Shown here piece after piece: positions 1,567-28,984 of a stretch of DNA of 64,000 nucleotides. The position numbers and the translations under genes were made by a program. Within the stretch, counting starts at the first letter, position 1, and each line of letters starts with the position of its first letter. Origin of the DNA: a virus (Duplodnaviria > Caudoviricetes). The notes under the pieces are model-generated. The model saw only the letters and a program-made list of their open reading frames with translations, had not been told where the DNA came from and ran no database searches. The stretch covers positions 26,707 through 90,706 of IMG/VR virus record IMGVR_UViG_3300025018_000003; one strand, written 5' to 3'.

Positions 1567-1652
1567 ACACACGAAAAGGCAAATCCTGGACCAGATCCCT
1601 CATTCTCCATCCTCGGATGTGAAATGTAGGTGCTCATGGCCGAAAGGGTCAT
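1563..1652 (-). CDS. 29-aa micro-ORF MTLSAMSTYISHPRMENEGSGPGFAFSCV
   Basis: Read by hand. ATGA overlaps at both ends with the flanking genes. Confidence 0.4.
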   Translation of the reverse strand: MTLSAMSTYISHPRMENEGSGPGFAFSCV

Positions 1653-2389
1653 GACTCACCTCCAATCAAATCGCTTGCCGTAAGCCCGTCTGGCAGCGGA
1701 GGGAGAACGGAAAGAACCCCCTGTTTCCCAGCGAGCCTGGCACTGATCTCGTTGGCCTCCTTGGTGGAGATGATCTGCCGGGCATGGAGATCATCGACCT
1801 CCCACTGGTCTTCAGGATCGAACTCCACTGGGATATTCCGGTCTGTCATCTCCTTCCACTGGATGGGAGCGGAGACGTCTATCGGATTCTCCTTGTTGAC
1901 GAAGATCGGCCCAAGGGACGGAGGCCTCACGATCTTCTGGGGCTCGTAGTCCACGAACACCAGATGGTGGCCGGACAACCGATCTTCGAAGACCGGCTTG
2001 ACGTCCTCCCACTTCAATCCGCCGATCCCACATCCCACCTGAGGGATCCCGATGACGAACTTCTTGGGGTTCGTCCAGATGAGCCATGAAGCCAATGCGT
2101 CCAAGCTGTGCTCGATGAACGAGATCTGGGCATTGGCCCCAGGAAGGTTCTGGGTGTAGAGGTTGACAAGGATTCCGTGTTGAACCGGCACAGGCAGGAT
2201 CGAGCCTGCGACTACTCCGTGCTGGGTGCAGAGCAGATGATCCGCTCTTTGCACCTCCGGGTAGGCTTGGGCAATCTGCTTGGCAATGCCAGCGCCCATG
2301 ATACCACGGCAATTGCAGCCGTGGACGATGACGTCGAAGTGACCAGCTTGGAATAGGGCGAGCAGGTCACCCTTGACTGTTCTGTTCAT
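1649..2389 (-). CDS. Macrodomain (Appr-1''-p / ADP-ribose glycohydrolase family) protein with C-terminal extension
   Basis: VKGDLL...VIVHGCNCRGIMGAGIAKQI...NLYTQ...GIPQVGCGIGGLKW are hallmark macrodomain motifs. Start reassigned to MNRTVKGD. Confidence 0.88.
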   Translation of the reverse strand: MNRTVKGDLLALFQAGHFDVIVHGCNCRGIMGAGIAKQIAQAYPEVQRADHLLCTQHGVVAGSILPVPVQHGILVNLYTQNLPGANAQISFIEHSLDALASWLIWTNPKKFVIGIPQVGCGIGGLKWEDVKPVFEDRLSGHHLVFVDYEPQKIVRPPSLGPIFVNKENPIDVSAPIQWKEMTDRNIPVEFDPEDQWEVDDLHARQIISTKEANEISARLAGKQGVLSVLPPLPDGLTASDLIGGES

Positions 2390-2684
2390 CAGAGTTGGGT
2401 TTGAATGGTTCTCCGCAGTGCGGACAAATAGGGATGGGCTCTTCGTCGTGGAAGGTGAAGCGCTCATCGATGGATTCCGTGATACGCCGCATGGCGTTGT
2501 CGACGACCTCGGCGATGTGCCGATCAACATCTCCGTCAGGCACCTTCTCGTAGACGAAGGCATTCCCGACGTATCGGGTGCGTTCCCACTTGATGTACCT
2601 GGAGTGCTTGTTGACACGGTTGAAGAAGCCGCGGAGACCGCTCTCAATGGCTTCGTCGAGGAGGTCCCTTAGGCGTACTTTCAT
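2367..2684 (-). CDS. Hypothetical protein with C-terminal CPHC knuckle
   Basis: ORF in operon context. Confidence 0.65.
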   Translation of the reverse strand: MKVRLRDLLDEAIESGLRGFFNRVNKHSRYIKWERTRYVGNAFVYEKVPDGDVDRHIAEVVDNAMRRITESIDERFTFHDEEPIPICPHCGEPFKPNSDEQNSQG

Positions 2685-3214: not shown

Positions 3215-3400
3215 TTATCGTGGTTTGTGACGGGATCTCCGTCGGTATTCGTCCTGCCAGCCCTTCCTCTCCTTGAACTCCCACCACCAGTCACGAATGC
3301 CCAGGTAGGCGAAGATGGAGAGCCAGAAGAGCGTGATCAGGACAAGTAGTCCCAGACCGATCAAGGTCTCGATGGACACGAAGACTTCAAGTGTGATCAC
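3215..3400 (-). CDS. Small membrane protein
   Basis: GTG start overlapping the upstream TGA (GTGA). One hydrophobic segment followed by a basic tail. Confidence 0.6.
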   Translation of the reverse strand: MITLEVFVSIETLIGLGLLVLITLFWLSIFAYLGIRDWWWEFKERKGWQDEYRRRSRHKPR

Positions 3401-3984
3401 GGCTTGCTCTCCCCGACCTGGTGTGTCGGTGGCAGGTTCTCCAGTGCCATCCTGATCGCCTCCTTCAGCTCGAAGGGGCGGGGGACACCGAAGTACTTCC
3501 ATGCAGGATCTACTCCGACATCCAGACGGCCTGGTGGGTTGGGGGTGACTCCATGGACATGTCCGTGGAGGTTGACGACGTCGCCCTTCCAGAACTCGTC
3601 GATCATCATGGGCCGGTGGGTCATGAAGACCTCGACTGGGAGTCCCTTGACTCGCAGGATCTTGGCGTCAAGGATCTGGTCAAAACACCCCAGGAGAGTG
3701 TCCGGCCAACTGCGCAGGTTGTCGTGATTGCCGATGACCAGGATCTTCCTGGACGCCGACCTTGACAGGTGCAGAGCCACGTCCTCGCCCTTCTCCTTGC
3801 CGCCGAAGTAGACGTCGCCGAGATGGTAGAGAGTGTCTCCTGCCCTGCACGACGCCTGCAGCATGTCTCCCATCAGCTCGTTCATCTCAGCCACCCCTTC
3901 ATCCGTCAGAGGGACGGGGCGTCCGGTGTACTGGATGATGTTGCGGTGGAAGAAGTGGGTGTCTGCGGTGACGTACGTTTCCAT
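3397..3984 (-). CDS. Calcineurin-like metallophosphoesterase
   Basis: ADTHF, HLGD, GNHD and HGHVH motifs. Confidence 0.9.
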   Translation of the reverse strand: METYVTADTHFFHRNIIQYTGRPVPLTDEGVAEMNELMGDMLQASCRAGDTLYHLGDVYFGGKEKGEDVALHLSRSASRKILVIGNHDNLRSWPDTLLGCFDQILDAKILRVKGLPVEVFMTHRPMMIDEFWKGDVVNLHGHVHGVTPNPPGRLDVGVDPAWKYFGVPRPFELKEAIRMALENLPPTHQVGESKP

Positions 3985-4136
3985 GCTTCGTATTCCTCTG
4001 GTTTGAACAGGTAGTCACAGTGACCATCCATGTCCGGTTTCATGTTGCCTGAGAACTTGTCAGGATTGCCGTTGGGGCGGACACAGTCGCGGGCACAGGA
4101 GTACCCGGGACAGTATTCGACATCGAGGTAGATCAT
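3906..4136 (-). CDS. Small Cys-rich hypothetical protein (MIYLDVEYCPGYSC...)
   Basis: ATGA overlap with the upstream micro-ORF; four Cys residues. Confidence 0.55.
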   Translation of the reverse strand: MIYLDVEYCPGYSCARDCVRPNGNPDKFSGNMKPDMDGHCDYLFKPEEYEAWKRTSPQTPTSSTATSSSTPDAPSL

Positions 4137-4246
4137 GACAGGCACCCCAGGATGAATAGGCCGATCAGGACCATGAGGCCCAGTCCCAGGAACACCACAA
4201 AGGTGCGCCACAGGAAGATCAGCAGAGTGCGTGTGGATTGGTTCAT
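4133..4246 (-). CDS. 37-aa single-TM peptide MNQSTRTLLIFLWRTFVVFLGLGLMVLIGLFILGCLS
   Basis: Read by hand. Hydrophobic, and its stop overlaps the next start. Confidence 0.6.
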   Translation of the reverse strand: MNQSTRTLLIFLWRTFVVFLGLGLMVLIGLFILGCLS

Positions 4247-4311
4247 ATCTTTTTTGGTATGTCAGATGTGACATCTCACTCGGTGGAAGAGTCGCCTCTC
4301 CCACCGGTGAA

Positions 4312-6291
4312 TCAGAGACCTGGCAGCTCGCAGGCTTCTCCGTCGCAGCCCCGTTCAGGAGCCTTCTGGAAACCTTCTACGATGCTGTCGAAGTCGACTG
4401 GGAGCAGCTTTGCGGCCATCTCCAAGTACTTCTCTTCCGTGATCTCTTCGTAGGGCATCTGTGCGTACGCCCCACCTGATTCGAGCTTGGGCAGGAAGCT
4501 GACTCCCTTGAGCTGATACTGGTAGTAGTTCAGCGCGTGGGGAATCTGATCCGCCTCATGCGGCTTGAAGGTGATCGTTGCCGACACCTGGTTGTCCGCC
4601 CAGTGCTTCTGCAGGAAGGCCGCCAGTGCAAGCTGCTCCCACATGGACACCTCGTTGACCGTTCTGATGTTGTTGCCGAGGCTCACAGGGAACTCGACAA
4701 TCATGGTACCAGAGTCGTTCACCGAAGGCTCCATGGTGTAGCCAGCCTTGAATAAGGGCTCCAGCAGAGGGCTTGTTTTAGCCACACGAACACGACGGAT
4801 GTAGAACTGGCTCTCCGGGTAGTGCAACCCAGGAGTCGCACCAGCGAGCAGAGAGACGGTACCTGACGGCTTGATGCTCGTGGTCTTGATAGATCGCGGC
4901 ACCGCCAGCCAGTCAGAGTACACCTCGTCGTAGTACTGGATGGTCTCGTAGCCGGACTCCGCCCAGTTGCGGAGAGTCGACAGGCCTCGTTGAGTGATGA
5001 ACTGGGCGATGCCAGTCATCGAGGTGCCGATTCTCCTGTTCCGGAGCAGAACCCGGTTGGTCTCCGCCCAGTGAGTGGCCCCGAGGGTCACTGTCTTGGC
5101 GTAGAGGTAGGCGAACTTGAGGGTCCGCTTGAAGGCCTCCAGTGACTCGTGGTTGTGCGGGTAGGTCTCGACCAGGCAACAGAGTTCGTACGGCTCCAGT
5201 GTCTGTTCGAGGCACGGATTCCCACCACGGGCCCGGTGATCCTTGTAGTCAGGACCATTGTTCATGCGGCTGTAGTTCTGCATGTTGGCCAACCAGGCGT
5301 AGCCCGGTTCACCATTACGCGCAGTGCGTAGTGCCGCATGCTCATAGTCCTGGCCGATCTCGGCGAAGATGGAGTTGTTGGACGTCCATCCCCAACCGCT
5401 TTTCCAGTCATTCCTCTCCGGGTTGACCTCATGGTTCTTGAGGTCGAGGTACTCGTCGGTATCAGGACCAAACACGATTTCCGCGGTTCGGCGGACGTTT
5501 CCAGCGATGACGCAGGCCCCGATCATGTTCATGATGTCGACGATGTCCGTTGCCGTGAGCATGTTGCCCACGCGGTTCTCCAGCACCTGGATGATCCGCT
5601 GGTGCAGGAGATAGAGAGGCTCTGGACCTGCAGCCACACCACCGAAGCCCTTGATGGGGGTTCCGGCAGGGCGGATCTTCGAGTAGTCGAACTGCGGAAG
5701 CTGTCTTCCGTGGTTCAACAGGTAGGCATCGATAATCTTGCACGTCGTCACCACCCAGCCCTCCCGGGTATCCGGGATGACGAAGACTTCGTCGACGTGT
5801 TCGACAGGATGCACCATACAGGTGTCGGCACCACGGACATCGAAGCCCACTCCGACTCCCAGCATGGACATGTCCATGAGGAACTCGAAGGGCTTCCCTC
5901 CTTCCGTGGAGACGTGCTCGGTGCTGACGAACCCGCAGTTGTTCAAGGCCGCGAAGACCTTGCGCTGATCAGTCAGTTCCGAGCCCATGGCCCAGAGACC
6001 ACGCCCGGGTGGGGTGAACTTGAGACTCCAGATGCGGTCGAACATCTCCTGCGCAGACTCCTGGGCCTTCTTCGGGTCCCAGCCAAGTCCGTGGCGGTTG
6101 ATGTGATCTTCCTGCATCCGGTAGGTCCCTTCCACCACACGGCGGACAGTCTCGAACCACCTTTCATTGGTCCCATCCGCCTTGACCCGCGAGTAGGTCC
6201 GCAGGTAGGTGAACTGACCAAGAGCGCCGAATCCGAAGGGCGGTTTCCGATGCGCATACTTGGCCACGAAGGCGTCATCGAGTTTGAACAT
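4312..6291 (-). CDS. nrdJ: Class II (B12-dependent) monomeric ribonucleoside-triphosphate reductase
   Basis: TPPGRGLW, ALNNC, NVRRTAE, GNPCLEQ (thiyl Cys), LCCLVE, IKPSGTVS, and C-terminal CDGEAC. Start reassigned to MFKLDD. Confidence 0.93.
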   Translation of the reverse strand: MFKLDDAFVAKYAHRKPPFGFGALGQFTYLRTYSRVKADGTNERWFETVRRVVEGTYRMQEDHINRHGLGWDPKKAQESAQEMFDRIWSLKFTPPGRGLWAMGSELTDQRKVFAALNNCGFVSTEHVSTEGGKPFEFLMDMSMLGVGVGFDVRGADTCMVHPVEHVDEVFVIPDTREGWVVTTCKIIDAYLLNHGRQLPQFDYSKIRPAGTPIKGFGGVAAGPEPLYLLHQRIIQVLENRVGNMLTATDIVDIMNMIGACVIAGNVRRTAEIVFGPDTDEYLDLKNHEVNPERNDWKSGWGWTSNNSIFAEIGQDYEHAALRTARNGEPGYAWLANMQNYSRMNNGPDYKDHRARGGNPCLEQTLEPYELCCLVETYPHNHESLEAFKRTLKFAYLYAKTVTLGATHWAETNRVLLRNRRIGTSMTGIAQFITQRGLSTLRNWAESGYETIQYYDEVYSDWLAVPRSIKTTSIKPSGTVSLLAGATPGLHYPESQFYIRRVRVAKTSPLLEPLFKAGYTMEPSVNDSGTMIVEFPVSLGNNIRTVNEVSMWEQLALAAFLQKHWADNQVSATITFKPHEADQIPHALNYYQYQLKGVSFLPKLESGGAYAQMPYEEITEEKYLEMAAKLLPVDFDSIVEGFQKAPERGCDGEACELPGL

Positions 6292-6570: not shown

Positions 6571-6999
6571 TTACCTCCCTGTGGATCCAAATCCACCTTC
6601 CCCGCGCTCTGACTCGGAGAGTTCTTCTGCGAGTACCGGGTAGGCGAGGATCACCGGAACGATGAGCAGCTGGGCCACTCGGTCTCCGGCAAGGTAGTAC
6701 TGGTTGTATCGAGGACCACCTACACGACGGAATCGAACCTGGATGGTACCCCGGTATCCGGAGTCGATGACTCCGATGGAGTTAGCCAGGGTCAGTCCTG
6801 TCGTGGAGATGGACGATCTTGGAGCGATGAGTCCAACGAAGCCCTCCGGAATCTCGACAGCCAGTCCGGTTTCATACCAGGCCTCGCTGTCAGAAAACAC
6901 CATGCGCTCCGCTGCCACCAGATCCAGTCCCGCATCCGTGGAGTTGGCCCTCGTAGGCAGTACGGCTTTCTCGTGCCGTAAGTGAAATTTCAAGTCCAT
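6571..6999 (-). CDS. dut: Trimeric dUTPase
   Basis: AGLDL, APRSS, GVIDSGYRG, RVAQL and RGEGGFGSTG are the five dUTPase motifs. Confidence 0.95.
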   Translation of the reverse strand: MDLKFHLRHEKAVLPTRANSTDAGLDLVAAERMVFSDSEAWYETGLAVEIPEGFVGLIAPRSSISTTGLTLANSIGVIDSGYRGTIQVRFRRVGGPRYNQYYLAGDRVAQLLIVPVILAYPVLAEELSESERGEGGFGSTGR

Positions 7000-7026
7000 G
7001 AGTATAGGCTCTTGGGGGCTAGAGAC

Positions 7027-7063
7027 AAAAGCACCCGGCCAGATACCCCAACTGACCGGGTGC
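7027..7063 (-). terminator. Intrinsic terminator after rIIB
   Basis: GCACCCGGTCAG / CTGGCCGGGTGC stem followed by TTTT on the minus strand. Confidence 0.75.
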
Positions 7064-11205: not shown

Positions 11206-11907
11206 CTACCATTCGATAGGGCTGATACCGGCCTCCTCCAGGAAGGCGTTGGCCTTGGAGAAGGGCTTGCTTCCGAAGAAGCCGCGATGGGCCGACAACG
11301 GGCTTGGATGAGGGGACCGAATGGCCAGATGAGTGTGCCAGTCAGTCTCCAAGCTGTCGACCATGTTCTCGGCATGCTTGCCCCAAAGGATGAACACAGT
11401 GGGTCGAATTCCGTCTATCACGTCCTGCAGTACCGCAGAGGTGAACTGCTCCCACCCAATGTTGGCGTGTGAAGCCGCCTGCCCTGACCTGACGGTGAGA
11501 GCAGTGTTCAGCAACAGCACGCCCTGCTCTGCCCATCTGGACAGATCCGGGTTCGGATACGGCTCACGGAAACCAAGATCATCCTCAAGCTCCCTGAAGA
11601 TATTCTTGAGGGAAGGAGGTAGCTTGGAGGAGTCCGTGTTCGCAGGTACAGAGAAGGCGAGGCCGGTGGCCAAGCCCGGAGTGTGATAGGGATCCTGGCC
11701 GACGATGACGACCTTAACCGACTCTCGGGACGTCAGGATCAGACTCCTGAAGACTTGGTCCGGAGACGGAAAGATCTGCCTGGTCGACCTCTCCTTCCGG
11801 AGTATCGACGACAGCTTCGTCAGGTACGGCTTCTCCCACTCGCTCCACAGACACTGACTCCAGCTGGGGCCCACCAGCTGTGTCGCCAGCTCCTTGGCTC
11901 TGCTCAT
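11206..11907 (-). CDS. ung: Uracil-DNA glycosylase, family 1
   Basis: GQDPYH, GLAFSV, LPPSLKNI, GVLLLN, LWGKHA and HPSPLS motifs. Confidence 0.96.
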   Translation of the reverse strand: MSRAKELATQLVGPSWSQCLWSEWEKPYLTKLSSILRKERSTRQIFPSPDQVFRSLILTSRESVKVVIVGQDPYHTPGLATGLAFSVPANTDSSKLPPSLKNIFRELEDDLGFREPYPNPDLSRWAEQGVLLLNTALTVRSGQAASHANIGWEQFTSAVLQDVIDGIRPTVFILWGKHAENMVDSLETDWHTHLAIRSPHPSPLSAHRGFFGSKPFSKANAFLEEAGISPIEW

Positions 11908-12319
11908 TGGATGCCTCCTCGGCTTCTCGTTCACGGATGTCGGCGATGATCTTCTTCATCCGCTTCAGGGCCGTCTTCCGGAGAAGACGTCCGCCGAAGA
12001 AGGACTGGCGGCCTTCGAGATACTCCTCGATGGCATCGATCAGGTTGTCCCGATCATTCATCATCTCGGTGCCGAGCTTGACAGCCTCGTTGAACTGCTG
12101 CTGAATCTGCTGCGTCTGACGCATCGAGTTCCAGAGGCCGTACTGAAGGCTGATTGCGGTGAACCGCACGGCGTCCAGGCGATCCTTGAACATCGCAGAT
12201 CCCGCGGCCATGGCCTGCGCGAGCTGGTTGCTCTTGTCCTCCTGGAGAGACGCCCAATCCCGCTTGAGATCGGACGGGGAGAGACGCTTCTGCGTCTTGG
12301 CAGTGGTGGACTCACTCAT
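11714..12319 (-). CDS. Hypothetical coiled-coil protein; C-terminus overlaps ung
   Basis: ORF MSESTT...; helical composition. Confidence 0.6.
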   Translation of the reverse strand: MSESTTAKTQKRLSPSDLKRDWASLQEDKSNQLAQAMAAGSAMFKDRLDAVRFTAISLQYGLWNSMRQTQQIQQQFNEAVKLGTEMMNDRDNLIDAIEEYLEGRQSFFGGRLLRKTALKRMKKIIADIREREAEEASNEQSQGAGDTAGGPQLESVSVERVGEAVPDEAVVDTPEGEVDQADLSVSGPSLQESDPDVPRVG

Positions 12320-24140: not shown

Positions 24141-24263
24141 GGTGGTCTGTGGCTGGTGAAAATGGATGAGGCCCCCCAGTGATGGCTGGGAGGCCTCTCT
24201 ATTAGGTCCCCACCCCCATCAAGGCGAGTCTGAGGGGACCATAGGTGCTGCCGTGGCAGCTTG

Positions 24264-24627
24264 TGGAGGTGCCGGGAGTCGAACCCGGGTCCTGTATGTC
24301 TTCTCTCAGTCCTGACGAGCGTCCTCAAGTTGGGGAGTGAGGTCTCCCTGGGGCTCCTAAGAGCATCTCCACCACCAAGTGATCAATCCCGGCTCACTTG
24401 GAAGCCGACGGGTCTTTCCCCCGCAGTCAACAGATGGATGGCACCGGTCTGATCCCTATCTGCGTCAGGGACCGATGGCTCTAGGCCGCCAGACGAGTCT
24501 GACGAACCATGGCGTATGCGTAATCGTTGGCGATTATGCTGTTGCAGCGCATGTTGATGAGGTGTTGCTGCAGTTCCTCAGCTCGTGTTCCTTGATCTGT
24601 CCATCCAGTCGAAGCCGTTACACCCCC
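24264..24627 (-). ncRNA. ssrA: tmRNA; tag ANDYAYAMVRQTRLAA* at 24481-24531
   Basis: 5' GGGGGTGTAACGGCTTCGAC; 3' GGACCCGGGTTCGACTCCCGGCACCTCCA; G3-U70 Ala acceptor stem; ATAATC before the resume codon; tag ends in AA. Confidence 0.95.
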
Positions 24628-24673: not shown

Positions 24674-26116
24674 CTACTCCTCCAGCAGGGCTTCGAGTTC
24701 CTCGATGGACTTGCCTTCGAGGTCCTCCTCCTGCTTGCGGGCGATGAGTTCCGCAATCCGCTGACGCTTCTTGCGAGTCTCAGCCGCAGCCAGAGCACGG
24801 TCACGATCAATGACCTTGGTCTGGAGGATGTCGAGCACGACGTCGAAAGCCAGCTGAGCCTCGATGTTCTTCGCTGACCTCTCGGTCAGGAAGGACTTGG
24901 CCGCGGACTTCTCCACGGCTGCTTCGAGGTTCACCGCCAGCTCATCCAGCACCTGGAGATCGAGATCCCACAGCTGCTCGACGGACAGAGGTCCGCGCTC
25001 GGTGTTGATCCGCAGCTTCTTGCGGGAAGCTGCCTTGACGCCGTCGAAGATCGAGATGTCCTTGACCGAGCCATCACCCGGGTTCAGGTGCAGGATCTCC
25101 GAGACCTTGATGTCACGCAGGGTCGCCAGCCGACGCTTGAAGGCGGAGGTGTACCCGTTCTCCTCACAGAACTCACGAGCATTCTCGATCATCTGCTTGG
25201 TGATGGGGGCCTTCGCCTTCATGTAGTTGGCCGGGTCCACACGGACGTTCCAGGCCCTGCAGGCCGCGTTCAGTTCCATACCCTCGGACAGTTCCACGCA
25301 GAGCACGCCGATGAGTTCGTTCCTGAACTTGGCCATCGGGAATCCACGTGACTCCACCCAACACCAGCGGTCCCGAAGAGCCGGAGGAATCTGGTCGAAC
25401 ACGCGCTTCTTCTCGATCATAGCCTGGACTTTCGACAGGTGCGCATCACCATTCAGGAGCGAGCCCTGAGTGATGAGGTCACGCACCAGTTCCAGCGTGT
25501 CCAGCGGGATCTCGTTGAGACCACGCTTGAACACGTTGTAGGCATCGCGCATGCGGCCCTGCACTGCCTCGATGGAAACCTCGTTCATGAGAACGAAGGC
25601 CTTGTCGACGAACAGGTGCATGTGTTCCCACACGCGGGTCTCATTCGCCTTGACCACGCCGAACTTGTCCGCCTCGTCCTGGGTGTAGCACTTCACGTTG
25701 GAAGACACACCCAGCTGGAAGCGTTCGTTCTTGCGGCTGCAGGACTCGTAGGGCAGACTCTTCAGTGCGTCGAAGGTCTCGTAGAAGACATCCTGGATGT
25801 CCGCTCCTCGCAGGAGGATGGACAGGACGCGAGCCACATCCTGCATCTCCAGGTCAGTGACCTCGTCGAAGATCGACATGACCTGGAGTTCATCATCGAT
25901 GGCAACGATGTTACCGTACCGACGGATGAAGTTGTGGCAGTTGTTGCAGTTGTGGTACGAGCTGGACGGATCCCTGAACACCGGGTTGGTGCCTTCCGGG
26001 AACGAGGCCAGGTACGCATTCCACAGCTCACTGCCGGTGATGCTCGATCTGAAGAGCAGACCAGTGGCCTGCATCTCCTCAAATCGCTTCTGCATCTGCT
26101 GAGCCATCTGTTTCAT
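24674..26116 (-). CDS. Conserved phage hypothetical protein (CxxCxxF motif), apparently fused to a C-terminal coiled-coil domain
   Basis: HNCNNCHNFIRRYGNIV and VDPANY motifs; C-terminal RKKLR...LSVEQLWDL...KSIEELEALL. Start reassigned to MKQMAQ. Confidence 0.75.
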   Translation of the reverse strand: MKQMAQQMQKRFEEMQATGLLFRSSITGSELWNAYLASFPEGTNPVFRDPSSSYHNCNNCHNFIRRYGNIVAIDDELQVMSIFDEVTDLEMQDVARVLSILLRGADIQDVFYETFDALKSLPYESCSRKNERFQLGVSSNVKCYTQDEADKFGVVKANETRVWEHMHLFVDKAFVLMNEVSIEAVQGRMRDAYNVFKRGLNEIPLDTLELVRDLITQGSLLNGDAHLSKVQAMIEKKRVFDQIPPALRDRWCWVESRGFPMAKFRNELIGVLCVELSEGMELNAACRAWNVRVDPANYMKAKAPITKQMIENAREFCEENGYTSAFKRRLATLRDIKVSEILHLNPGDGSVKDISIFDGVKAASRKKLRINTERGPLSVEQLWDLDLQVLDELAVNLEAAVEKSAAKSFLTERSAKNIEAQLAFDVVLDILQTKVIDRDRALAAAETRKKRQRIAELIARKQEEDLEGKSIEELEALLEE

Positions 26117-26306
26117 TGGTGTTGTTGGTTTCGGGGAGGGCCCCATGTTTGAGAAGCCAGGTGTCAGGATCCTGACGGATCTCGAAGTAGAACTCAAACT
26201 GCGGGAGTCTGCGGTCTACCTTGGAAATCTGTATTGGGAGAGTGTCACGGCAGATCCGGGTACGGCTGTGAGCCTTCCGGGTCTGGGTGTCGTTGATGCG
26301 GATCAT
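26079..26306 (-). CDS. Hypothetical protein (MIRINDT...)
   Basis: ATGA overlap with the upstream gene. Confidence 0.55.
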   Translation of the reverse strand: MIRINDTQTRKAHSRTRICRDTLPIQISKVDRRLPQFEFYFEIRQDPDTWLLKHGALPETNNTNETDGSADAEAI

Positions 26307-28356: not shown

Positions 28357-28560
28357 GGTGGTGCCCGGTTGGGTTGTGAAATGGATGAGGGGCTGGTCAA
28401 GCCCCTCGGTTGAGATTCACGTTAGCGGATCAGTTGACCAGACTGCCGACGTGTCTAATGCCAGTCTCAAGGCATACTCTAGTCATCGAGCAGATGCCAC
28501 GTTGATTGGGCCAACAGTGGAAGCCCCTCGGACCAGGTATACTCTGGTTACCCGAGCAAG

Positions 28561-28666
28561 GCGCGATGGCAGGGGTCGAACCTGCACACTGAGGTGAGCA
28601 AAACACGGAAACTCTGCCTCACAAGGGTATATGAGCCCAAGGCCCTACCATTAGGCTACACCGCGC
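28561..28666 (-). tRNA. tRNA-like gene, CAT anticodon, with a roughly 34-nt insertion 3' of the anticodon and a G-1:C73 pair
   Basis: Acceptor (G)CGCGGTG / CATCGCG(C); D arm GCCT/GGGC; T arm GCAGG-TTCGACC-CCTGC; TTGGG-CTCATA followed by extra sequence. Confidence 0.65.
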
Positions 28667-28695
28667 ACCCTCTGCCCATAAACAGGGCAGGGAAG

Positions 28696-28767
28696 CAGCA
28701 ACGGGTGGACTTGAACCACCAACCTCCCCCTTACCATGGGGGGCTCTACCAGTTGAGCTACGTTGCT
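28696..28767 (-). tRNA. tRNA-Thr(GGT), no encoded CCA
   Basis: Cloverleaf AGCAACG/CGTTGCT; anticodon arm CCCCC-ATGGTAA-GGGGG; appears one nucleotide short at position 26. Confidence 0.85.
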
Positions 28768-28822: not shown

Positions 28823-28899
28823 TGGTAGCGGCGGTGGGATTCGAACCCACGACCTCCAGGTTATGAGCCTGGCGAGCTGGACCTCTGCTCTACGCCGCA
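28823..28899 (-). tRNA. tRNA-Met(CAT), initiator-like, CCA encoded
   Basis: Full cloverleaf; 1:72 U:U mismatch; CCAGG-CTCATAA-CCTGG; ends ACCA. Confidence 0.92.
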
Positions 28900-28905
28900 G
28901 TGTTG

Positions 28906-28984
28906 TTGTGGTGGGAGGAATCGAACCTCCGGCCTCCGTTATGTGCATGGAGAACGGCGCTCTGCCTTGCTGAGCTACACCACA
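28906..28984 (-). tRNA. tRNA-like gene with a 12-nt anticodon loop (identity ambiguous)
   Basis: Perfect acceptor TGTGGTG/CACCACA, D and T arms; anticodon stem CCGTT/AACGG closes CTCCATGCACAT. Confidence 0.75.

Follow-up and report, generated by a model that had tools for sequence, protein, structure and literature searches.

The window that was analysed, a stretch of 64,000 nucleotides, comprises bases 26707–90706 of a 90,706-base virus record with direct terminal repeats. The virus is a crAss-like phage, judging from its predicted proteins: one of 1659 aa matches the Crassvirus muzzle protein, and PHROG matches were obtained for terminase, portal, major head proteins, family B DNA polymerase, RIIA/RIIB-like proteins and ribonucleotide reductase. 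The G+C content of the phage is about 57%, and the standard genetic code was assumed because the open reading frames (ORFs) are long under table 11. A tmRNA gene, which is a bacterial trait, is found by ARAGORN and Rfam at 24263–24627 on the minus strand, and about 4 kb upstream of it there are four tRNA-type genes on the same strand. Three of these are reported by both programs as well: a tRNA with a 12-nt anticodon loop (28905–28984), an initiator-like tRNA-Met(CAU) (28823–28899) and a tRNA-Thr(GGU) (28695–28767). The fourth, at 28561–28666, where the earlier note had placed it, is the tRNA-derived gene that concerns us here.

The Rfam tRNA model (RF00005) matches 28561–28665 on the minus strand with 40.5 bits, which exceeds the gathering score of 29 for a cloverleaf, and with an E value of 4e-5 for the 64-kb window. 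The alignment spans the full model (positions 1–71), with a 37-nt gap in the anticodon loop. ARAGORN misses the gene with its default settings and reports it only with the intron option. From both programs and from the reading of the sequence, the gene extends from G-1 (28666) to the discriminator C73 (28561), and all its parts lie on the minus strand. The 5' acceptor strand CGCGGUG, preceded by G-1 (28659–28666), pairs with 28562–28568, so that C1–G7 face C66–G72 in seven base pairs including one G-U, and G-1 can pair with C73. The Rfam alignment gives a D arm GCCU / AAUGGUA / GGGC (28642–28656) with a 4-bp stem, and then UUGGG (positions 27–31) followed by CUCAUA, an anticodon-loop-like stretch displaying CAU (28630–28640, with CUCAUA itself at 28635–28630). 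Directly after it come 35 extra nucleotides (28629–28595), placed by the Rfam gap and formed by UACCCUU and most of a 29-nt imperfect hairpin. In the Rfam register the gene resumes with C38, the 3' anticodon-stem strand CUCAG (39–43) and a 3-nt variable loop UGU (28586–28594), and it ends with the T arm GCAGG / UUCGACC / CCUGC, whose stem has 5 bp, the 3' acceptor strand CAUCGCG and the discriminator C (28561–28585). The conserved bases of the elbow are all kept (U8, A14, G18 G19, U54 U55 C56 and A58), and CCA is not encoded. The sequence is identical in three assemblies, namely the IMG/VR record, a 90,720-base ENA contig and a Logan contig, which rules out an assembly error; the ENA and Logan assemblies agree with the record at 100% identity wherever they were compared, and the source data of the phage are ENA ERZ27293386 and run SRR6053076. 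Thus, the observation is real, and the earlier note was correct in describing a tRNA-like gene that carries an insert at the anticodon loop while its acceptor, D and T arms are intact.

Several features of the surroundings are worth recording. In the tRNA at 28905–28984 the stems are perfect and the anticodon loop, CUCCAUGCACAU, is 12 nt long, with five extra bases in comparison with the elongator tRNA-Met of Gordonia phage Phendrix and Streptomyces phage LuckySocke; with introns allowed, ARAGORN takes it for a Val(CAC) tRNA interrupted by a 5-nt 'intron', CCAUG. The tRNA-Met at 28823–28899 bears the marks of an initiator, namely a U-U mismatch at 1:72, A11:U24 and a CCA that is part of the gene; of the three G-C pairs at the anticodon-stem base, however, it has only two. 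The spacer that separates the target from tRNA-Thr contains a 9-bp bulged hairpin at 28667–28700 on the minus strand (−14.7 kcal/mol, z −1.9). The 205 nt after the target (28357–28560, minus strand) contain several hairpins and two copies of AGAGUAU(A/G)CCU (28470–28480 and 28535–28545), a count that is not above chance, and the search for a promoter or terminator context around the target likewise gave nothing above chance. The ORFs flanking the target are without Pfam or PHROG match; scans of 36 ORFs against these collections found nothing related to RNA and left about half of them without any match. In the early region, a 332-aa Macro-domain protein (1649–2647, minus strand) and a 195-aa calcineurin-like phosphoesterase (3397–3984, minus strand) may process an ADP-ribose or nucleotide signal, and no link with tRNA was found for them.

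A normal anticodon arm would have a 5-bp stem closing a 7-nt loop, and here 42 nt separate UUGGG from CUCAG. How this region should be folded depends on the method. In the Rfam register CAU is displayed and the insert follows position 37; its removal at 37/38 leaves the stem UUGGG/CUCAG with two G-U pairs and a variable loop of just 3 nt, which is abnormal for a tRNA. ARAGORN with the intron option proposes a tRNA-Asn(GUU) with a 28-nt intron after position 32, the stem UGGGC/GCUCA and a 9-nt variable loop. Free-energy folding gives a third answer, in which GGG pairs locally with CCC at 28625–28627 and forms a 3-bp stem with an 8-nt loop, CUCAUAUA, plus a side hairpin. This last fold has −33.3 kcal/mol, compared with −29.6 kcal/mol for the Rfam register, and the middle segment folded alone returns the same stem-loop and hairpin; the global minimum-energy fold of the whole gene is not a cloverleaf. 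The ambiguity arises because GCUCA occurs at both ends of the insert and UGAG is able to pair with either copy. Hence, a unique splice register cannot be fixed, and the mini-intron at 37/38 that had been proposed is one of at least three registers.

It had also been argued that removal of the insert restores a tRNA of normal length. All 714 possible deletions of 18–45 nt between the D and T arms were generated and submitted to ARAGORN at its default threshold. As many as 497 of these artificial deletions were called tRNA, with more than 20 isotypes. The upper half of the molecule is so strong that arbitrary deletions restore a tRNA, and this kind of test therefore has no discriminating power here; the argument is not diagnostic.

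As for the insert itself, the imperfect hairpin at 28594–28622 has 10 bp, one bulged G and the loop UUUCCGUG. It is formed by part of the insert plus the next base, and is preceded by 7 single-stranded nucleotides. Its energy is −7.6 kcal/mol (z −1.4), a value equalled by 18 of 200 shuffled sequences, and the whole middle segment has a z of −0.2. The hairpin that had been noticed can thus be folded, but it is no better than expected by chance. The source of the insert was not found: no second copy is present in the window at up to three mismatches, TRF detects no tandem repeat, and the local self-alignment is no better than that of shuffled sequences, so that the insert is neither a tandem or internal duplication nor a duplicate of adjoining sequence.

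The classes of known introns were considered in turn. The P1–P9 core of a group I intron takes some 200 nt or more. With an insert of 35 nt, and with no match of the Rfam group I model (Intron_gpI) at E values up to 1, this class is ruled out, as it had been from length alone; under the same threshold the locus matches tRNA and otherwise weak YrlA or plastid noise. A bulge-helix-bulge consists of two 3-nt bulges on opposite strands with a 4-bp helix between them, at both junctions. None could be drawn by hand on the target sequence, and the earlier statement to that effect holds: the four bases that precede any 3-nt 3' bulge would be UUGC or UGCU, neither of which is complementary to CUCA or UCAU, and CUCA has its sole partner bases at the insert's 5' end, away from the 3' junction. 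In six-frame searches, PF01974, PF01139 and PF09414 were absent from the genomes of the target phage and of its one relative; neither of them encodes RtcB, an RNA ligase or a tRNA splicing endonuclease.

The acceptor end deserves separate attention, as the pair G-1:C73 had been put forward as the identity element of tRNA-His. ARAGORN was run on all the phage and bacterial loci gathered in this work, a sample that is biased by the gathering. Among 933 non-His tRNAs, C73 is present in 32, G-1 in 65 and both in 2 (0.2%), whereas among 29 tRNA-His genes C73 is present in 25 and both bases in 18 (62%). The sample is biased and the contrast is large, and it stands that the acceptor end of the target looks like that of tRNA-His. 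UUGUGA, which contains the His anticodon GUG, is indeed found within the insert, as had been pointed out. GUG is displayed in no loop, as UUGUGAG has no complementary flanks, and positions 34–36 of a 7-nt loop are not occupied by it. The end is His-like, yet the gene cannot be called a tRNA-His. Escherichia coli HisRS relies chiefly on G-1:C73 and charges minihelices bearing that pair.

The rest of the body gives little help in assigning an isotype. Several Bacillota MAGs have a tRNA-Gly(UCC) with exactly the 20-nt stretch that includes the D arm, which marks this arm as generic, and the T arm is no indicator either, as it is common to bacterial Arg, Gln, Asn and other tRNAs. In a nearest-neighbour ranking of the body, a small comparison biased by the gathering of loci, Gln, Arg and Gly come out rather than His. 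Isotype assignment by similarity was accordingly rejected as uninformative. A role as tRNA-Ile2 is unlikely as well, AUA accounting for 13 of 17,048 codons and 1% of Ile codons.

The earlier note had suggested looking for conservation of the insert in related phages. A single relative was found, with 76% identity in the polymerase: an 88,239-base contig with direct terminal repeats (G001), which is one and the same in IMG/VR and among the JGI metagenomes. It has no sequence homolog of the target. By protein synteny, the target cluster lies between homologs at 6770–7027 and 11782–12216 of that contig, and the interval holds one tRNA gene (G001:C1:8769–8844, minus strand; L008:1501–1576). The blastn search against 50,697 phage records at E values up to 1 gave no homolog, nor did the IMG/VR pattern searches (D arm to T arm, and the D-arm 20-mer), and the GTDB genomes gave nothing for the 3' half. 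With a profile made from two polymerase sequences, only relatives of about 30% identity were reached, none of which has a comparable tRNA. The protein with a DUF8224 domain (PF26675) has no close relative in IMG/VR, and homologs about 59% identical have ordinary tRNAs upstream. Conservation of the insert is thus not borne out in any of the collections searched.

The tRNA genes of the relative have peculiarities of their own. The gene in the syntenic interval scores 42.2 bits with Rfam and has the anticodon arm ACUCA / AAUGUU / UGAGU, with a loop of 6 nt, or of 8 nt with a 4-bp stem. Downstream of the tmRNA of G001, another tRNA (G001:C1:1134–1728, minus strand; L010:1134–1728) with the acceptor AGUCUCA/UGAGACU and the loop region CUUGCAA is split in the anticodon region by about 520 nt. 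The insertion contains a complete tRNA-Arg(UCU) (1585–1657) and an ORF for a 140-aa HNH_3 endonuclease (1139–1561), which continues across the T arm and stops within the 3' acceptor strand; no group I intron was found by Rfam in this split gene. Of the seven tRNA-like genes in the two phages, four depart from the norm at the anticodon loop and nowhere else (2/4 in the target phage and 2/3 in the relative).

Around the DUF8224 gene some further observations were made. In G001 it is found by tblastn as two pieces (L153:3086–5615) separated by about 950 nt (3493 to 4446), a gap that may correspond to an intron, an intein or an inserted gene. The counterpart in the window lies at 24674–26197 and encodes 480–507 aa, compared with about 700 aa in most homologs. 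In distant relatives (L022:9817–9892 and L023:3192–3342), A34 tRNAs of the types Ile(AAU), Phe(AAA) and Arg(ACG) are located just upstream of this gene; Ile(AAU) and Phe(AAA) are unusual anticodons for bacteria.

Other insert-bearing genes were sought in IMG/VR with a pattern formed by GGGCUCAUA, then 30–60 nt, then the T loop. Most matches were ordinary tRNAs whose acceptor starts with GGGCUCA, and a few were real insert-bearing tRNA-like genes with CAU. The cleanest comparator (L141:5660–5750, in IMGVR_UViG_3300018495_000082) is initiator-like and carries an 18-nt insert at 37/38, directly after CUCAUA. In both this gene and the target GGGCUCAUA is directly followed by a short insert. Nevertheless, removal of the insert from the comparator gives a perfect arm, UCGGG / CUCAUAA / CCCGA, and the gene has 60.4 bits, whereas the restored arm of the target is imperfect and the gene has 40.5 bits. 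The comparator is what a convincing mini-insert looks like. Another CAU gene of tRNA type, L080:2947–3037, has a variable region of 22 nt and scores 34.2 bits, and four more (L060, L067, L098 and L138) have long extra arms and fall below the Rfam threshold. These six IMG/VR genes are often initiator-like.

With all these data, the reading that we tentatively prefer, short of calling it probable, is that the target is a tRNA gene of a four-gene cluster whose anticodon arm was disrupted by about 35 inserted bases, which would make it a non-decoding look-alike, as opposed to a tRNA that is spliced. The most economical account is that the gene was hit at the anticodon arm, as happens repeatedly in this lineage. 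It is supported by the clustering of lesions at anticodon loops (the 12-nt loop, the 6- or 8-nt loop and the tRNA split by an HNH_3 gene), by the combination of no unique register, a weak hairpin, no splicing machinery and no homolog, and by the far higher score of the comparator. The insert would most likely be a by-product of the traffic of mobile elements and endonucleases at the anticodon loops of this lineage. As transcribed, the RNA presumably cannot decode normally because it presents no anticodon in a 7-nt loop closed by a canonical 5-bp stem. It should still be processed because the upper half is intact, and RNase P, the 3' trimming enzymes and the CCA-adding enzyme would be expected to recognise it; it might also be a substrate of HisRS through G-1:C73. 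The transcript could be a relic of recent origin, or else serve some purpose other than decoding.

Some facts do not sit easily with a disrupted gene. The three other stems are perfect and the conserved elbow bases are all kept, which long neutral decay would not leave; this points either to a recent event or to selection on the RNA. The loop-only differences in two of four tRNA-like genes of this phage and two of three of its relative could equally be the result of purposeful design. The occurrence of G-1:C73 together with UUGUGA in the insert is an unlikely coincidence that hints at a specific identity, and no source was found for the inserted bases.

The first alternative is that the 35 nt form a protein-dependent mini-intron, cut after A37 with the halves rejoined, for example by a host endonuclease and host RtcB, to give an elongator tRNA-Met(CAU). 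The insert is indeed at the canonical 37/38 site in the Rfam register, its removal would leave the loop CUCAUAC with U33 and A37, and an elongator would complement the only other Met tRNA of the phage, which is initiator-like. Short unexplained inserts have been published for phage tRNA genes (Devoto et al. 2019, PMC6784885), and the comparator described above is a clean case at this very site. However, the register is not unique, the restored stem has its two G-U pairs and a 3-nt variable loop, and the insert is not a clean hairpin, given the 7 unpaired nucleotides that precede it and the z of −1.4. No bulge-helix-bulge can be formed, no ligase or endonuclease is encoded by the phage and there is no conservation among the sequences searched, while the rarity of AUA among Ile codons speaks against an Ile2 version. 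We consider this mini-intron unlikely; the minor share of probability that we leave to it is due to the perfect stems, which argue for a recent event or for an RNA kept for use.

A second alternative is that the RNA is functional without splicing, its upper half with G-1:C73 being matured to act as a decoy, a sponge or an amino-acid carrier. Its partners might, speculatively, be HisRS (for binding or charging), or else a host anticodon nuclease or another tRNA-binding defence protein, with the enlarged arm barring the ribosome. G-1:C73 is almost exclusive to tRNA-His (2/933 compared with 18/29), it is established that E. coli HisRS charges minihelices with this pair, and UUGUGA, the core of the His anticodon loop, lies inside the insert; the perfect elbow and stems and the neighbouring tRNAs altered in their loops only point in the same direction. 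Against it, the sequence is not conserved, no partner gene is nearby (the flanking ORFs having no Pfam or PHROG match), GUG is displayed in no loop, the body is closer to the Gln and Gly types than to His (in a small and biased comparison) and the structure of the insert is no better than chance. In our opinion, such a role is a doubtful one.

An improbable reading is that of a decoding tRNA with five arms, or similar to class II, used unspliced in the manner of tRNA-Sec or allo-tRNAs. Its fold, to which we give a low probability too, would have an acceptor of 8 bp, the GGG/CCC stem with its 8-nt loop, read as a quadruplet or as CAU, and, in the variable region, a long arm. Compared with the Rfam register it gains 3.7 kcal/mol, and local folding returns it; moreover, once the arm is shortened, the commonest ARAGORN call is the GGG/CCC arm with the 4-base anticodon 'cata', and CAU tRNA-like genes with long extra arms exist in IMG/VR (L060, L067, L080 and L098). 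Nonetheless, only L080 among these reaches the Rfam threshold, and the anticodon stem of the target would have just 3 bp flanked by U-U mismatches. The variable arm of class II tRNAs ends 1–2 nt before the T stem and the D stem of tRNA-Sec has 6 bp, whereas in the target 8 unpaired nucleotides (CUCAGUGU) separate the hairpin from the T stem and the D stem has 4 bp. Finally, a genuine protein-spliced mini-intron or built-in arm that joins a His-type acceptor to CAU, or else an undescribed bacterial cut-and-rejoin route common to insert-bearing phage tRNAs, is improbable as well; if the former were true, we would have a tRNA that is charged by HisRS and yet reads AUG.

The target illustrates that in a little-sampled, high-GC crAss-like lineage the anticodon loops of tRNA genes have undergone repeated alteration. 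On present evidence it serves mainly as a caution: a strong upper half lets almost any deletion 'restore' a tRNA. We think, for this reason, that an intron should be claimed for an insert-bearing phage tRNA gene only once the insert is seen to be conserved or an allele that lacks it is known. Should the insert prove to be removed or used, the gene would be a further hint of an undemonstrated route of tRNA processing in phages of bacteria, and it would join a His-type acceptor to a Met-type anticodon. By its sequence, the target adds to the insert-bearing phage tRNA genes that were already known, and its insert was found in no other phage searched.

Comparison with known systems helps in placing the gene. 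It shares with bacterial tRNA-His the encoded G-1 that pairs with the discriminator C73, but it has no GUG in a 7-nt loop and its body is unlike the tRNA-His genes collected here, within a small and biased comparison. Like tRNA-Sec, the allo-tRNAs of Mukai et al. 2017 are said to have a long extra arm, an 8-bp acceptor and a non-cognate anticodon. The target resembles both in its possible 8-bp acceptor, long extra arm and non-cognate anticodon, and differs from them in the 4-bp D stem with a 7-nt loop, the 3-bp anticodon stem and the 8-nt spacing between arm and T stem. The introns of archaeal and eukaryal pre-tRNAs, which a splicing endonuclease excises at a bulge-helix-bulge, have the same site, after A37 in the Rfam register, and the same size range; in contrast, the target has no bulge-helix-bulge, its phage encodes a tmRNA and no EndA-type domain was found. 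Group I introns of bacterial and phage tRNA genes, some of which carry homing endonuclease genes, also share the anticodon-loop site, and they differ in that a 35-nt insert cannot hold their P1–P9 core. The anticodon-region insert of the relative, with its HNH_3 gene, is similar to those group I introns that carry endonuclease genes. Dense group I introns, inteins and suppressor tRNAs have been described for crAss-like phages, and no short tRNA inserts (Yutin et al. 2021, PMC7886860).

The Lak megaphages offer a close parallel, as their tRNAs have 'enigmatic', highly conserved introns, one of which possibly encodes a tRNA, and tRNA introns in phages were stated to be previously unreported (Devoto et al. 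2019, Nat Microbiol, PMC6784885). The tRNA genes of Lak phages and the target are both missed by finders in bacterial mode, and their inserts are alike in lying in the anticodon loop, in being too short for self-splicing and in having no known splicing mechanism. On the other hand, the Lak inserts are conserved, often identical, across cohorts, and their boundaries were set by aligning genes with and without the insert, whereas the target, identical in its three assemblies, has no second copy, no insert-free allele, no relative that keeps the insert and no unique boundary. The likeness extends to the relative, whose split tRNA with an internal tRNA-Arg recalls the Lak tRNA intron that possibly encodes a tRNA.
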